Positions 1,897-64,000 of a stretch of DNA of 64,000 nt are shown here, in pieces. This DNA is from Patescibacteria group bacterium UBA2773 (GTDB taxonomy: Bacteria > Patescibacteriota > Minisyncoccia > Moranbacterales > DUUL01), in contig DEIN01000017.1 in NCBI GenBank assembly GCA_002352465.1, forward strand, positions 64,777 through 128,776, read 5' to 3'. The number at the start of each line of letters is the position of its first letter. Within the stretch, counting starts at the first letter, position 1. The notes beneath the pieces are model-generated. The model ran no database searches, was not told where the DNA came from, and was given only the letters and a program-made list of their open reading frames with translations. The position numbers and the translations under genes were made by a program.

Positions 1897-4800
1897 TTAA
1901 TTAGATATTTTAATATTTTCTTTTCCGACGATTTTTTCAAATTCAGTGATTACTTGTTTATTATACAGAATTTTTTGAGGAATTTCCAATTTTCCAGTTC
2001 GACCTGCGGTTGTGATAAAAATTTTGCTATTACCTTTGTTTGCATTTTTTAAAAAAGTCGAAATAGCTGAAAGTTTTTCTTGAGCTCGGTTTTTTTCAAT
2101 GTGAACGGTGATTTTTATGGATTTTTCAGTTTTAACTTTATTATTTCCTGTCTCATTGCTAAAAGATGAATTGACTCCAAAGCCTTCATGTTTACCTTCT
2201 TTCTTGAATTTTTGAAGTTCGAGTTCATCAACTAAGTTAACTTCTTCGCATAAAAGTTTGTATTCGCCATCTTTATCGGAAAGTTTTCCTTTAATTAGAA
2301 CAATTTTTTCTTCTTGCCAAATTTCTGGATTTTTTTCTAGTGTTTTAGGGAAAACTAAAATTTCCATTTTGCCCATTCCATCTTCAATAGTGTTGAACAT
2401 CATTAGTTTATTTCTTCGAGTATAAATTTTTTGAACCTTAGTAATAATTCCACCGAGGACAATAGTTTGATCAATTAATCCACTGTGAAGATTTCTAATT
2501 GGGATAGCGTGAGCAGAAAAATAATCTTGATAATTTCTTAACGGATGATCAGAAATGTAAAGGCCCAAAAGTTCTTTTTCCCAAGAGAGTTTAACTCGGT
2601 TGGTAGCTGGTTTTACAGTTTGAAGAGATATTTTGGGAATTTCTAATTTGGGTTGGTCTTTTCTCGCGATGCCAAAAAGAGAGGTTTGTCCAGAAGCTAC
2701 GGTTTTTTGATATTGTTTAGAATAGGCTAAAATAACCTCCATATTTTCGACTAAGCGATTTCTTTCGGTTAGATCGTCTAGCGCGCCAGATTTTCCCATT
2801 GCTTCTAATGATTTTTTATTTAAATCTCGGCACTGAACTCTTTCAACAATTTCTATTATATCTTTAAAAGTTCCATTTTTTTCTCTTTCTTTAATTAGTT
2901 CTGAAGCAATATTGGTTCCAACTCCCTTGATAGCTTCTAGCCCAAATCGAATTTTTGGTAAGGTTTTTTTCTTAGATTTGGCTTTTTTTCTGATTTTTTC
3001 TAATTCTTCTAAATTGTTCATAATAACCGCAAAATCGTTGAAACTTTCATTGATGTTGGGAGCGAGTACTTCAATTCCCATTTGACGTGATTCTTCAATT
3101 TCAATGGCAATTCGGTCAATATCATCTTTGTCAGAATTGAGTAGCGCGGCCATAAATTGAGCGGGGTAGTGAGCTTTGAGGTAGGCTGTTTGGTAGCCAA
3201 TCAAGGCATAGCAAGCGGCGTGTGAACGATTGAAACCGTAGCCGGCGAAGGGTTCAATAAATGAAAAAACTTTTTCAGCTAATTCTTCCCTAACTTCATT
3301 CGTAACACAGCCTTCAATGAATTTTTTCTTTTGTTCTTGAATCATTTCGTGAATTTTTTTACCCATCGCTTTTCGGAGAACATCAGCTTCGCCTGGAGTA
3401 AAACCGGCTAATTCTCGTGAAATTTGCATTACTTGTTCTTGATAAACAGCTACTCCATAGGTGTTTTCTAAAATTGGTTTGAGCTTGGGATGCAAATATT
3501 CAACTTTTTTAGTGCCATGTTTTCCGCCGATAAAGTCTGGAATCCATTCCATCGGACCGGGTCGATAGAGGGCAACCATAGCGATAATGTCTTCGAAAAC
3601 AGTGGGTTTTAGTTTTTTGAGATAGCGTTTCATTCCAGATGATTCTAGCTGAAAAACTCCAGTAGTATCTCCGTTTTGTAAAAGGTTAAAAGTTTTTTTG
3701 TCGTCTAACGGTAGAATATCAATGTCGATTATGTCGCCAGTGGTTTTTTTGATAATACTAAGAGCATTTTGGATGATTGTCAGATTTTTTAGTCCCAAAA
3801 AATCCATTTTAACTAAACCAATTTTTTCAACGTAAGAAGATCTGGAAGAGCCATTGTATTGGGTCACCATACCTTGATCTTCTTTGCCGGCCATATATTG
3901 AAGTGGAGTATATTCAACTACTGGTTTAGGGGTGATTACGACTCCACAGGCGTGAACTGAAGCGTGACGAGCTACGCCTTCTAATCGAACGGCGGCGTCT
4001 AAAATTTGACGAGCATCTTCATTGGTTTTGTATTCATTCTTTAATTCAGCGGTGTTTTCCATAGCGTCTTTCAAGCCAGTAAAGGCTGGGACCAGCTTGG
4101 AAAGTTTGTCACAATAGGAATATTCAAAATCAAGGACTCTTCCGGCATCTCGAATAGCGGCTTTGGCGGCCATTGTTCCAAAGGTAATAATTTGAGCGAC
4201 GTGGTCGTGACCAAAAGTATCTCGAACGTAAGCCAAAACATCGTCTCGGCGATCGTCTGGAAAATCAAGATCAATATCAGGTAGAGAAATTCGATCAGGG
4301 TTTAAAAAACGTTCGAATAAAAGTTTGAATTCGATTGGGTCAATGTTGGTTATTCCGGTTAGATAGGCAATGATACTGCCGGCGGCACTTCCACGACCAG
4401 GTCCGACAATAATTTCGTGGTTCTTGGCCCAATTAACAAAATCTTGAACAATTAGAAAATAGCCAGCAAAACCCATTTTTTTGATTACTCCTAATTCAAA
4501 TTCTAGTCGTTCCAGGTGTCCTTTAGTGATGTTTTCTCCATAGCGTTTGGGCAGACCTTCTTCGCAAAGTTTGCGTAAATAAGATTGAGGTGTGAAGCCT
4601 TTTGGAACTTTATAATTAGGTAATTTGTGGTTGCCGAATTCAATTTCTACATTGCACATTTTTGCAATTTTTCGGGTGTTTTTAAGGGCTTCGGGGGTGT
4701 CTTTAAAAAGCTCATGCATTTTTTCTGGACTTCTTAAATGAAGCTTGAAGTCTTTCATTGAAAATCGATTGGGATCACTTATTTTTTTTCCAGTTTGGAG

Positions 4801-5475
4801 ACACATTAGAATATCTTGAACATGGGCGTCATCTTCATTGACATAGTGAACGTCGGCGGTTGCCACTAAAGGAATGCCAGTTTTTTTAGAAATTTCTTTT
4901 AGTCCCTTATTGGCAATATTCTGTTTTTCTAATTGTGGTAAATATTGAAGTTCGAGATAATAATTTCCTTTGCCTAATATTTCTTGATATTCTAGTGCTT
5001 TTTCAGTGGCTTCTTTCATTTTTCCACCAATGACTAATTGTGAAATATGACCTTGGACACAACCACTACAACCAATTAAACCTTCGGAGTATTTTTTTAA
5101 GACTTCCATATCAATTCGAGGTTTATAGTAAAAACCTTTGAGATGAGCTTCAGTTACCAATTTCATTAAATTTTGATAGCCTTTATTATTTTTGGCTAAT
5201 AAGATTAAATGAAAACGTTCTTCGTCAACGCGCGGGCGTTTATTTTTTAAACCGTTGGGAGCGAAATAAAATTCGCAACCAATAATTGGTTTAATCCCAG
5301 CTTTTTTGGCTTTTTGATAAAATTCAATTACCCCATACATTGTTCCGTGGTCAGTGATTGCCATTGAATCCATATTAAATTCTTTGGCTCGATCTAAAAG
5401 ATCGTCAATTTTTCCTAGGCCATCTAGTAAACTATAATGGGTATGAACATGTAAATGGGTGAATTTTTTATTCAC
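1897..5475 (-). CDS. dnaE: DNA polymerase III alpha subunit
   Basis: The product is 1192 aa. It has an N-terminal PHP domain (HLHVHTHYSLLDG), a polymerase core (GFYYKP, PDIDLDF) and a C-terminal OB fold region. Confidence 0.95.
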   Translation of the reverse strand: MNKKFTHLHVHTHYSLLDGLGKIDDLLDRAKEFNMDSMAITDHGTMYGVIEFYQKAKKAGIKPIIGCEFYFAPNGLKNKRPRVDEERFHLILLAKNNKGYQNLMKLVTEAHLKGFYYKPRIDMEVLKKYSEGLIGCSGCVQGHISQLVIGGKMKEATEKALEYQEILGKGNYYLELQYLPQLEKQNIANKGLKEISKKTGIPLVATADVHYVNEDDAHVQDILMCLQTGKKISDPNRFSMKDFKLHLRSPEKMHELFKDTPEALKNTRKIAKMCNVEIEFGNHKLPNYKVPKGFTPQSYLRKLCEEGLPKRYGENITKGHLERLEFELGVIKKMGFAGYFLIVQDFVNWAKNHEIIVGPGRGSAAGSIIAYLTGITNIDPIEFKLLFERFLNPDRISLPDIDLDFPDDRRDDVLAYVRDTFGHDHVAQIITFGTMAAKAAIRDAGRVLDFEYSYCDKLSKLVPAFTGLKDAMENTAELKNEYKTNEDARQILDAAVRLEGVARHASVHACGVVITPKPVVEYTPLQYMAGKEDQGMVTQYNGSSRSSYVEKIGLVKMDFLGLKNLTIIQNALSIIKKTTGDIIDIDILPLDDKKTFNLLQNGDTTGVFQLESSGMKRYLKKLKPTVFEDIIAMVALYRPGPMEWIPDFIGGKHGTKKVEYLHPKLKPILENTYGVAVYQEQVMQISRELAGFTPGEADVLRKAMGKKIHEMIQEQKKKFIEGCVTNEVREELAEKVFSFIEPFAGYGFNRSHAACYALIGYQTAYLKAHYPAQFMAALLNSDKDDIDRIAIEIEESRQMGIEVLAPNINESFNDFAVIMNNLEELEKIRKKAKSKKKTLPKIRFGLEAIKGVGTNIASELIKEREKNGTFKDIIEIVERVQCRDLNKKSLEAMGKSGALDDLTERNRLVENMEVILAYSKQYQKTVASGQTSLFGIARKDQPKLEIPKISLQTVKPATNRVKLSWEKELLGLYISDHPLRNYQDYFSAHAIPIRNLHSGLIDQTIVLGGIITKVQKIYTRRNKLMMFNTIEDGMGKMEILVFPKTLEKNPEIWQEEKIVLIKGKLSDKDGEYKLLCEEVNLVDELELQKFKKEGKHEGFGVNSSFSNETGNNKVKTEKSIKITVHIEKNRAQEKLSAISTFLKNANKGNSKIFITTAGRTGKLEIPQKILYNKQVITEFEKIVGKENIKISN

Positions 5476-23250: not shown

Positions 23251-23751
23251 CTAGTCTCCTTTAATAATGGGAGCTATGATGACATTAAATCCATTTCCTT
23301 GTTGTCTAATGTCTTGTTCTATTTTAACTGGAAAATCGATTTTGTCAATGAATTCTTTCAATCGTTTCTTGGCTTGTTCAGCAAACGCCTTTTCTCGTCC
23401 TCTTAAAACGACTTGAATTTTAATCTTATTTTCTTTGGTTAAGAATTTTTTGGCTTGTTCGGCTTTGAAAGTTAAGTCTCCGTCACCAGTGCTTGGTCGA
23501 AATCTGATTCCTTTTAGTTTGGTCTTTTTTTGAGTTTTCTTGTTCTCGTATTTCTTTTTAGTTTCCATATATTGAAATTTTCCCCAGTCAATTATTTTGC
23601 AAACTGGTGGTTCGGCTTTGGGGGCAATTTCGACTAAGTCTAGATCTTGAGATCTGGCTAAAATCAAAGCATCACGAATTGCCATAATTCCGTGTTGTTC
23701 GCCTCTTTCGCCCACTACTCGAACGGTTGGTATATGAATAGCTTCATTCAC
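23251..23751 (-). CDS. infC: Translation initiation factor IF-3
   Basis: IRVVGERGEQHGIMAIRDALILARSQDLDLVEIAPKAEPPVCKIIDWGKF. The start is non-ATG, apparently GTG. The infC-rpmI-rplT order is conserved. Confidence 0.9.
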   Translation of the reverse strand: MNEAIHIPTVRVVGERGEQHGIMAIRDALILARSQDLDLVEIAPKAEPPVCKIIDWGKFQYMETKKKYENKKTQKKTKLKGIRFRPSTGDGDLTFKAEQAKKFLTKENKIKIQVVLRGREKAFAEQAKKRLKEFIDKIDFPVKIEQDIRQQGNGFNVIIAPIIKGD

Positions 23752-24059
23752 CTTATTCTTCGGTTTTCGCGGGACTGGTTTAAATACTCTTTTGATAAAT
23801 TTAATTTATTGATTAATTCTTTTGAGGGATTATTTTTAATCACCCTTTTGATGTTGCTAATATAGCAATATTCTTTATTTTTAGCAAGGCTAGAAAAATA
23901 AATTCTGAATTTTGAATTTAAAATTTCGATCCAATTTTGAATGACTTCATTTTTTAAATTCATAAGCGAAGCTTATGTAATTAAAAACTAAATAATTATT
24001 ATATTAAAAATTCATTTAAAATTTAAAATTGATTTTTCTTCAAAAGAAGAAAAACTTTG

Positions 24060-24654
24060 TGGAGGTGATGGGAATTGAACCCATGTCCAGTGTCAAAATT
24101 TTAAAATCGTCTACAGATATGTTCCATCTGTTTTTGAGAATAAATCTCAGAAGTTCAATCGCGTTGAGATGGACAAAAAAAGCGAGAGAACTTTTCTTTT
24201 GTGTGATTTGATTAATTTGCCAAAAGAAAACAAACTAACTACGTTCTAATGTTGACACCGATAAGGAATTGCAAGCAATTCCAGAGACTTATTAGAAATC
24301 AGTCAATCGATGGGCCATAGGTTAAAATTAAGCTATGGCAGCAGCAAAGTTAGGTGTGAAAGCAGATGCTAACGCACTTTTTGCTTTATTATATAAGTTT
24401 GCACTTATAAGGTTTCGGGATTGGCTTTAAATGTTCTTTTTACTACAATCGAAAATTTTTGATTAAATTTTCTTCAAATTTTTTTACATTAATTTTGGTT
24501 AGTGCTTCAAAAATTATTTAGAAAATTTATTCTAAAAATTTTCAATTTCGAAAACAAAATAACACTTAAAGCCAATCCCTGTATATTTTTAACAAGATAT
24601 ACAGCTTGATCTGCAAATTTCAAAATACTTAACCTGTCGAAGCCTGGCACCCCC
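24060..24654 (-). ncRNA. ssrA: tmRNA (SsrA), unusually long at ~595 nt
   Basis: On the minus strand the 5' end GGGGGUGCCAGGCUUCGACAGG matches the tmRNA consensus GGGGxUGxxxxGGxUUCGACxGG. The 3' end is a T-arm AUGGG-UUCAAUU-CCCAU followed by CACCUCC-A. Acceptor GGGGGUG/CACCUCC pairs with the G3:U wobble that specifies alanylation. The terminal CCA is not fully encoded. The gene lies immediately downstream of smpB on the same strand. A candidate tag frame is ...GCU GCU GCC AUA GCU UAA. Confidence 0.7.
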
Positions 24655-24659
24655 AGCGT

Positions 24660-24815
24660 GTTTTTCCGAAGAAACAAGGACACAAGAAACAAACAAATTA
24701 AAAATTTCAATATTTAAATTTCAAACTAAAAGCCTTTGGCTTTTTTATTTTTAAAATTTTAATTTGAGATTTGTTTGTTTCTTGTATCTTGTGTCCTTGT
24801 ATCTTAAAAAAATAA
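24660..24815. repeat. Long imperfect inverted repeat with a central terminator hairpin between smpB and ssrA
   Basis: aacaaggacacaagaaacaaacaaat pairs with atttgtttgtttcttgtatcttgtgtccttgt. The central hairpin is aaaagcc-tttg-gctttttt with a T-run. A related copy of the arm sequence occurs at 63888-63946. Confidence 0.6.
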
Positions 24816-24827
24816 TCAAATAATTTT

Positions 24828-25304
24828 TTAACGTCTTTCCTTATAGGCTCTTTCAATCTTGACCTTGTCTTCACGATTTTGAATCGATTGACGTTTGTCG
24901 TGCTTTTTCTTTCCCTTAGCTAAGGCAAATGAAAGCTTAATTAGGCTTTTTTTATTATACATTGAAACAGGTACTAATGTCAAGCCTTCAGTTCGAACTT
25001 TTCCTAGTAATTTTTTGATTTCACTTTTTTTGACTAACAATTTTCGCGGTCTGGTCGGGTTGTAGCCTTCGATAATTCCAGCTTGCTTGTAGGGATTGAT
25101 GTGAGCGTTGGTGAGGTATAATTCACTTCTGTTGAAAGTGACAAAAGCACCTTTGAGAGAGACGTGACCTGATTTGACTGATTTGACTTCGTAGCCTTTT
25201 AACACTAAACCGGCCTCGAAGGTTTCGAGGAGTTGGTAGTCAAAGTGAGCTCGTTTGTTGACAGCTAGTGATTTCATTGTGTTGACGGCTTGTCTATTTG
25301 ACAC
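24828..25304 (-). CDS. smpB: SsrA-binding protein
   Basis: The product is 158 aa, KRAHFDYQLLETFEAGLVLKGYEVKSVKSGHVSLKGAFV... Confidence 0.9.
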   Translation of the reverse strand: MSNRQAVNTMKSLAVNKRAHFDYQLLETFEAGLVLKGYEVKSVKSGHVSLKGAFVTFNRSELYLTNAHINPYKQAGIIEGYNPTRPRKLLVKKSEIKKLLGKVRTEGLTLVPVSMYNKKSLIKLSFALAKGKKKHDKRQSIQNREDKVKIERAYKERR

Positions 25305-63779: not shown

Positions 63780-64000
63780 AAGGATTGTTAATTACAAGAT
63801 ACAAGAAACAAGGACACCCACCTCCGCTAAAGCTACGGCGAGGCAAGCAAGAAATAAATAAATTAAGTCATAAAGGACACAAGATACAAGGACGCAAGAT
63901 ACAAACAAATTAAAAATTAAAATATTTAAATTTCAAATAAAAAGCTTCGCTTTGATAAGATATACAAGGACACCCACCTCCGCTAAAGCTACGGCGAGGC
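63780..64000. repeat. Repeat block at the window end (caaggacacaagatacaa-type plus MITE-like acacccacctccgctaaagctacggcgaggc, twice)
   Basis: It shares caaggacRcaagaWacaaacaaattaaaaatt...atttaaatttcaaa with 24671-24733. cacccacctccgctaaagctacggcgaggc occurs at 63817 and 63975. Confidence 0.6.

Follow-up and report, generated by a model that had tools for sequence, protein, structure and literature searches.

Protein-coding palindromes that also invade structural RNA genes have been reported as something peculiar to Rickettsia and Wolbachia. The Rickettsia palindromic elements (RPEs) are stem-loop repeats of 105-146 bp which, as summarised in PMC2229807 (citing Ogata et al. 2000, 2002), lie between genes, in frame within conserved protein genes and fused into the genes of transfer-messenger RNA (tmRNA) and RNase P RNA. 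Their lengths are also given as 100-190 nt (PMC2229807; PMC1458961). No clear target-site duplication accompanies them (PMC2229807), and the genome of R. bellii holds 526 of them, 53 in protein genes and 1 in the tmRNA gene (PMC1458961). As to tmRNA genes in general, the 2025 database paper distinguishes three forms, standard, permuted and intron-containing, and, besides a repetitive element in one permuted gene, mentions no insertions of repeat elements (PMC11915505). Our literature search gave no report of such palindromic elements in genomes of the Candidate Phyla Radiation (CPR). Here, we analyse a stretch of 64,000 nucleotides (nt) of contig DEIN01000017.1 from Patescibacteria group bacterium UBA2773, called the window in the following, whose tmRNA gene, ssrA, contains an extra segment of 163 nt. 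This segment is very probably an inserted palindromic repeat element.

The tmRNA gene of the window and its insert

The Rfam covariance model RF00023 matches positions 24057-24654 on the minus strand from model position 1 to 374, with 57.5 bits (gathering score 47) and E = 6e-20, and the ends of the match fall where a preliminary description of the window had put them. The mature RNA probably ends, on its 3' side, with the discriminator A, position 24060; counted to this base, the tmRNA is 595 nt long, and the CCA is not encoded. Both ends are canonical, as that description had held, with a tRNA-Ala-like acceptor stem GGGGGUG/CACCUCC containing the G3.U pair, the T-arm AUGGGUUCAAUUCCCAU and the discriminator A. 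The tag ANLYNKAKSALASAFTPNFAAAIA has a hydrophobic, alanine-rich end followed by a stop codon, the partner gene smpB is intact, and no terminator-like site was found within ssrA on its own strand.

For comparison, 80 species-level loci were fetched via SmpB, and both tmRNA ends were located in about 45 of them. The best relatives of the window SmpB are metagenome-assembled genomes (MAGs) of Moranbacteria and Parcubacteria, and the gene order at the locus is rpmE-prfA-prmC-smpB-ssrA-infC-rpmI-rplT. The tmRNAs of these relatives range from 342 nt to outliers of 420-481 nt. Since most of them measure 387-416 nt, the tmRNA of 595 nt, which had been judged far longer than usual, is a true outlier. 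ARAGORN, named in the preliminary description as a check, called 47 tmRNAs in the related loci but failed on the window, where it called a tRNA-His only. The RF00023 score of the window tmRNA is also lower, because of the insertion penalty, than the 133-139 bits of relatives without the insert; the relatives L111, L102 and L001, described below, score 85, 94 and 102 bits.

In the RF00023 alignment, a stretch of 172 nt is left unaligned directly after pseudoknot 1 (PK1). The insert begins at the final base of the P4 strand of PK1 and is followed by a linker of 14 nt, GAAACCUUAUAAGU, and by the resume codon. Its two ends, GGGAUUGGCUUUAAGUGUU and AACAUUUAAAGCCAAUCCC, form a closing helix of 19 pairs, 18 Watson-Crick and one G.U; allowing up to 3 mismatches, the 19-mer occurs in 64 kb at just these two places, with 0.06 expected by chance. 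Folded as a whole, the 163 nt give a single extended hairpin with imperfections, which has 62 pairs, an energy of about −55 kcal/mol and z = −7.8 against shuffles. The 19-bp helix and the AT-rich block of the preliminary description are thus both real, but the helix lies about 10 nt away from the coordinates given there, and the block, put at about 140 nt (24427-24569), measures 125 nt (Table 1). Without the insert, the tmRNA has a GC content of 35.9%.

The last 9 nt of the linker (UUAUAAGU and the preceding base) are the same as in several relatives whose site is empty. SmpB reads only four nt just upstream of the resume codon (PMC8363625) and, as the insertion site lies before the 14-nt linker, these nt are untouched.

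Copies of the element at other sites

The tmRNAs of the relatives L102 and L111 are 558 nt long, and each contains a stem-closed AT-rich block of about 163 nt. These blocks occupy another position in the tmRNA, the junction of PK4 and the 3' strand of helix 2 (site B, as opposed to site A of the window), the L102 block being inverted relative to that of L111. Aligned with the L111 block, the interior of the window insert matches it over 102 columns with hardly a gap (local alignment z = 16.7 against shuffles). A profile made from the three tmRNA-borne copies, those of the window, L102 and L111, detected two further copies outside RNA genes, one between the rpmE terminator and prfA (L001 1444-1634, E = 4.5e-21) and one within the prmC reading frame (L002 3285-3446, E = 9e-12). 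When the profile was rebuilt from the five copies, every copy scored between 1e-24 and 1e-40. The family therefore has several homologous copies, about 165 nt long, at four distinct and unrelated sites in five genomes. Among the options of the preliminary description, that of an inserted element is the one borne out, by full-length homology to copies at another tmRNA position, in a spacer and in prmC of related genomes.

The copies share the termini AGGGAYUG...CARUCCCU, that is, terminal inverted repeats around a long stem-loop, and a central motif UUUUGAAGCUUUAGC-N5-YUAAGGCAAAA, which has decayed in the window copy, as has the apical motif of the family, GAAGCUUUAGC..UAAGGCAA. The consensus hairpin of the five copies contains 70 pairs, 26 of which show compensatory changes, and the individual copies fold with z values of −7.8 to −11.3. 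The tmRNA copy of L111 and the intergenic copy of L001 are 88% identical. The two strands of the element differ in folding energy by 7-31 kcal/mol; G.U pairs account for the advantage of the better one, which does not depend on the direction of the host gene. An RDWL-stop sequence shared by two opposite frames had also been pointed out: AGG GAT TGG CTT TAA can indeed be read from either end of the inverted repeat towards its centre, an observation that is correct but trivial.

The prmC copy of L002, which is in antisense orientation like the copy of L102, is an in-frame insertion into a protein gene. It contains no stop codon and adds 54 residues to a loop whose length varies among relatives, the flanking PrmC being intact. 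At the same loop, prmC of L111 (about 1820-1930) and of L105 (about 1780-1890) has an insert of about 25 residues, in which no convincing palindrome was found. Weak recurrent matches of the element profile (best E = 3e-4) were seen at the 3' end of prmC (L124 1914-1997, L111 2107-2201, L001 3547-3635) and may be compositional. The intergenic copy of L001 carries, in its 3' arm, a nested G+C-rich insertion of 29 nt, GUCCGCCUCGGCAAGCCUCAGCGAGACGG. A weak profile match in L054 proved to be the normal N-terminus of trigger factor and was discarded.

The family was sampled in about 115 kb of element-bearing genomes, most densely in the 4-kb stretch from rpmE to ssrA. When the metagenomes were scanned for the terminal 19-mer, 15 loci came up, with both arms only in L084 and L095, whose tmRNAs are of the L001 type; the other 13 were rejected as single-arm chance matches in unrelated sequence. 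As no other two-arm loci were obtained, this variant of the stem is not dispersed. The core motif of the family matched viral contigs three times, each time in ordinary coding sequence, and nothing pointed to a phage vector. The 60-residue peptide encoded by the prmC insert, used as a query against proteins, yielded no candidates, a weak negative since the index needs three shared 5-residue words.

Site A in the relatives and selection on the gene

Site A is empty in L002, L099, L101, L102, L105, L108, L111, L114 and L124, which read ..UAU|CAAAC.., the complete empty site being ...GUAU|CAAACUUAUAAGU-GCA. Among the relatives, an insert at site A is present only in L001, and the same sequence is found in L084, L095 and L121, which come from other assemblies. 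In L001 the same 19-bp stem closes a loop of 23 nt, 61 nt in total, and the distal 102 nt of the element interior are missing, what remains being a neat closed hairpin. With 79.8% identity (473/500 bootstraps, from 797 aligned residues of PrfA, PrmC and SmpB), the window and L001 group as sister taxa; a tree from SmpB alone resolved too poorly to choose further members of their clade. The most parsimonious account is a single insertion before the two lineages split, with a later internal deletion of 102 nt in the L001 line. The alignment to related CPR tmRNAs thus confines the block at site A to the window and L001-type sequences, so that the term lineage-specific expansion, proposed earlier, suits it as a description and not as an expansion arisen within the tmRNA.

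Since the insertion, ssrA has been kept under structural selection, as seen from compensatory changes in PK1, the identical tag and the intact smpB. The strands of PK1 follow in this clade the order P3 5', P4 5', P3 3', A-rich linker and P4 3', and in the window they read CAAG, CUGUAUAU, CUUG, UUAAAA and AUAUACAG. In an alignment of 24 relatives, 100% of the P3 cells and 67% of the P4 cells are paired. Changes on both sides are seen at every one of the 10 pairs (10/10), none of 500 shuffles equals the observed covariation score, and slid registers fall far below it. Between the window and L001 the changes are compensatory, with CAAG/CUUG in the window against UGAG/CUCA in L001 and CUGUAUAU/AUAUACAG against UUAUAUGC/GCAUAUAG. 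The tag is identical in L001, where ARAGORN calls the gene, and it is conserved in relatives. The 61 nt of the insert common to the window and L001 are identical at 60 of 61 positions, versus 78.6% for the remaining tmRNA (Fisher p = 2e-5), and PK1, beside the insert, shows 13 differences in 36 nt.

Origin and fate of the insert

These data, taken together, suggest that a non-autonomous palindromic repeat, comparable to a miniature inverted-repeat transposable element (MITE) or to an RPE, entered ssrA before the lineages of the window and of its sister diverged. It would have landed where the last PK1 strand meets the single-stranded linker, 14 nt upstream of the resume codon, and its mobility would have been at the DNA level, by a transposase. 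In the transcript, the element would zip up into an independent arm of about 62 bp, as it is self-complementary from end to end. PK1, the linker read by SmpB, the tag frame and the tRNA-like domain would then be left free to fold, and the gene would stay functional. The insert would be neutral or nearly so, and its distal part could decay, being AT-rich in the window and deleted in the sister lineage; the base was kept.

That the arm persists in the mature tmRNA as a protruding rod is a proposal drawn from the sequence, to which we give about an even chance. According to Tanner 2006, as cited in PMC3968760, a small stable hairpin can replace PK1, and an extra helix beside PK1 is therefore plausibly harmless.

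Several observations weigh against a simple transposed passenger. After translocation, PK1 lies drawn in between the two ribosomal subunits (PMC8363625), and the attached rod of 62 bp could give rise to a clash there, a point in favour of trimming or processing. The identity of 60/61 in the shared 61 nt exceeds the conservation due to a neutral passenger. Comparison of filled with empty sites gave no recognisable target-site duplication, and the roughly 115 kb of element-bearing sequence contained no cognate transposase, although no dedicated search was made for a partner with the same ends. The family is of low copy number in the sampled DNA, with one copy in the 64-kb window and no further copies within 10 kb on either side of smpB in L120, L122 and L124. 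All six copies are located in the 4-kb rpmE-ssrA stretch, which is also the most-sampled region. The L002 prmC is the only in-frame protein example, and the 163-nt version occurs in one assembly only, with an identical contig in ENA.

The 60/61 identity and the steric problem keep alive two alternatives that share the palindromic origin. In the first, the rod would be an intervening sequence cut by RNase III, so that a two-piece tmRNA would arise from a non-permuted gene; we regard this as possible, though on the unlikely side. Helices 1 and 2 would hold the coding piece together with a 5' piece of some 80 nt, made up of the acceptor strand, a strand of helix 2 and PK1. An uninterrupted duplex of 19 bp, extended to about 62 bp, is a classical substrate of RNase III, and the base of the stem is conserved between the two lineages as a processing site would be. 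Site B, filled in L102 and L111, is near what we take to be the interruption point of natural two-piece tmRNAs. Natural two-piece tmRNAs show that the RNA can work with an interrupted backbone (PMC11915505, PMC3968760), and a long rod would be awkward where PK1 enters the inter-subunit space (PMC8363625). On the other hand, the arm was shortened and not lost in the sister lineage, as would suit a retained arm just as well, and cleavage would part the mRNA-like domain from PK1, 14 nt upstream of the resume codon. We know of no natural tmRNA with its mRNA-like domain cut free from PK1 in this way.

In the second alternative, which we consider quite improbable, the tmRNA has recruited the base of the element as a functional arm, which might, for example, stabilise the weak, AU-rich PK1 by stacking on it or bind a protein. 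The contrast between the retained part of the insert and both the rest of the tmRNA (78.6%) and PK1 (13 differences in 36 nt) is in its favour, as is the tidy closed hairpin left by the deletion in L001. Gene conversion from other copies is an unlikely cause of the identity, since the terminal 19-mer occurs in the metagenome collection otherwise only in L001-type tmRNAs. The replacement of PK1 by a stable hairpin, as cited in PMC3968760, is also in line with it. However, the comparison involves two lineages, slow evolution is usual for stems, the closest relatives with an empty site fare well without the arm, and PK1 itself is still maintained through compensatory changes. The broader proposition that a selfish repeat remodelled the tmRNA, its conserved base, 60/61 identical between lineages that share only 80% in their housekeeping proteins, being either an RNase III site, which makes a two-piece RNA from a standard-order ssrA, or a new arm sharing the role of PK1, is in our judgement unlikely.

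An artefact, by which the palindrome would have caused an assembly chimera or the insertion would have turned ssrA into a pseudogene, is very improbable. Palindromes can disturb assembly, two Logan contigs with identical smpB stop in the spacer before ssrA, and the Rfam score is 57.5 bits against 133-139 in relatives. The drop in score is nevertheless accounted for by the insertion penalty, a shorter version stands at the same site in L001, L084, L095 and L121, the insert is homologous to a family in other genomes, and the tmRNA features are intact, with compensatory changes in PK1 and a tag identical to that of the sister lineage.

An intron, self-splicing or otherwise spliced, whose exons would be re-ligated to a tmRNA of normal size, is scarcely credible, although group I introns are known in tmRNA genes (883 unique sequences, PMC11915505), the insertion is discrete and closed by a helix, and the preliminary description had considered it intron-like: the insert, at 163 nt and 22% GC, is too small and a simple rod lacking a P3-P9 catalytic core, a search at E <= 10 gave no match to an Rfam intron family (sub-threshold matches were limited to meaningless ones, to long-hairpin plant miRNA precursors), catalogued tmRNA introns are all in the T-psi-C loop (PMC11915505) while the insert follows PK1, and homologous copies lie in an intergenic spacer and, in antisense, in prmC and in L102.

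Features of the locus and other palindromes

The coordinates of the features are collected in Table 1.

Table 1 Features of the ssrA locus in the window
Feature	Position	Strand	Basis and remarks
Palindromic repeat element, tmRNA site A	24417..24579	-	Fold z, profile, alignment; 163 nt, 22% GC, single rod
Closing helix, 5' arm (terminal inverted repeat) GGGAUUGGCUUUAAGUGUU	24561..24579	-	
Closing helix, 3' arm (terminal inverted repeat) AACAUUUAAAGCCAAUCCC	24417..24435	-	
AT-rich interior of the element	24436..24560	-	125 nt, 16.8% GC
Single-stranded linker GAAACCUUAUAAGU	24403..24416	-	14 nt, from insert to resume codon
ssrA (tmRNA), standard one-piece	24057..24654	-	RF00023 full-length match; fold of entire tmRNA z = −9.2; 173 nt downstream of smpB
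Pseudoknot 1	24579..24608	-	P3 CAAG/CUUG, P4 CUGUAUAU/AUAUACA(G); last base G 24579 is the first base of the insert stem
Tag reading frame	24328..24402	-	Translation; resume codon GCA (24402-24400), then ANLYNKAKSALASAFTPNFAAAIA, stop
T-arm, 3' acceptor strand and discriminator	24060..24084	-	T-arm 24068-24084, CACCUCC 24061-24067, discriminator A 24060
smpB, 149 aa from ATG	24828..25277	-	Immediately upstream of ssrA; P0001 100% identical, PF01668
Extra mini-hairpin GGAAUUGCUUGCAAUUCC, PK2 region	24265..24282	-	Alignment; absent from most relatives
Extra mini-hairpin UGAGAUUUAUUCUCA, site B	24135..24149	-	Exact place of the full-length elements in L102 and L111; absent from most relatives

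Two extra mini-hairpins are present in the window tmRNA. At the position of the one in the PK2 region, L099 has AGGAUUGUUUUCAAUCCU, which resembles the termini of the element, and GGAAUUGCUUGCAAUUCC may be the deletion remnant of another copy. The mini-hairpin UGAGAUUUAUUCUCA at site B may likewise be a remnant of an element.

The spacer between smpB and ssrA (window 24662-24812) is filled by an AT-rich palindrome of 150 nt with two arms of 70 nt, 73% complementary, whose apex is a terminator-like hairpin AAAAGCC-AAA-GGCUUUU. A related copy is present in L111, at 2278-2422 in the spacer between prmC and smpB (E = 7e-10), and a partial one at window 63881-63954 (E = 9e-5), so that the palindrome looks like a second palindromic repeat family. 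The same spacer measures 3 nt in L099. The Logan contigs L097 and L098, which are independent short-read assemblies, end in or just after this palindrome (about window 24677); palindromes at the ssrA locus may break assemblies. Between ssrA and infC, the window has an open reading frame of 71 residues (23748-23963, minus strand) with no Pfam match, uncalled in most relatives.

Other expanded tmRNAs were seen in the collection. That of L006, a Moranbacteria-related genome, is 481 nt long (4572-5052) and contains in the PK3 region (about 4838-4925) an unrelated block of about 85 nt, whose interior is AT-rich and whose closing helix, G+C-rich and about 19 bp long, is CCCCCCACCACUUAU.../...AUAAGUGGUGGGGGG. 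The tmRNAs of L030 and L047 have 450 and 435 nt. Insertions into tmRNA seem to be recurrent in the Moranbacteria-related group; if so, the tmRNA would be a recurrent landing pad, with two and possibly three sites of the element family in addition to the unrelated insert of L006.

Such genes matter for annotation. ARAGORN misses them, and with the Rfam model the score is reduced to 57 bits, 10 above the threshold, from about 135, so that annotation pipelines could report the window genome as devoid of ssrA, and some MAGs reported without tmRNA may carry such insertions.

Comparison with known systems

Group I introns in tmRNA genes resemble the element in that they interrupt ssrA and much lengthen the gene. 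They differ from it in their place in the T-psi-C loop, their average length of 293-414 nt, their catalytic core and their recognition by covariance models (PMC11915505). In permuted two-piece tmRNAs the backbone may also be interrupted, and one permuted gene has a repetitive element in its intervening sequence (PMC11915505), whereas the window gene has the standard order with an end-to-end match to RF00023.

The intervening sequences of 23S and 16S rRNA are excised by RNase III without re-ligation. Judged from sequence, the element resembles them as an AT-rich block with a long closing helix in a structural RNA gene, patchy among close relatives; it differs in its host, a tmRNA, and in belonging to a repeat family that is also found outside RNA genes. 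The locus offers a testable case of whether RNase III can create two-piece tmRNAs. Should co-option or processing hold true, a selfish repeat would have reshaped an essential ribosome-rescue RNA in a CPR lineage. If, instead, the rod is simply retained, an arm of 62 bp placed 14 nt upstream of the resume codon, beside the pseudoknot that passes between the subunits, would be a natural case of tolerance bearing on the limit of bulk in trans-translation.

With bacterial MITEs (Correia/NEMIS, ERIC, RUP, BOX) the element shares its small size, terminal inverted repeats, stem-loop transcripts, dispersed copies and internally deleted variants. Unlike them, it is self-complementary over its entire length and not at its ends alone, and neither a TA or other target-site duplication nor a partner insertion sequence was found.

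The closest known analogue is, by its behaviour, the RPEs. No membership of that group is claimed, and sequence homology would not be expected given the phylum. The host here belongs to the Patescibacteria/Moranbacteria and not to the Alphaproteobacteria, the copy number in the sampled DNA is low, and there is one protein-coding insertion. The tmRNA of Rickettsia is of the permuted two-piece form, whereas the element described here is in the mature part of a one-piece tmRNA, beside PK1 and the resume codon. In common with RPEs, the element is palindromic, forms a long stem-loop, has no recognisable target-site duplication and occupies intergenic, in-frame and tmRNA sites, and the host genes of RPEs stay functional, as would be the case for this ssrA. 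The comparison suggests that palindromes of such a kind also occur in the streamlined genomes of the CPR.

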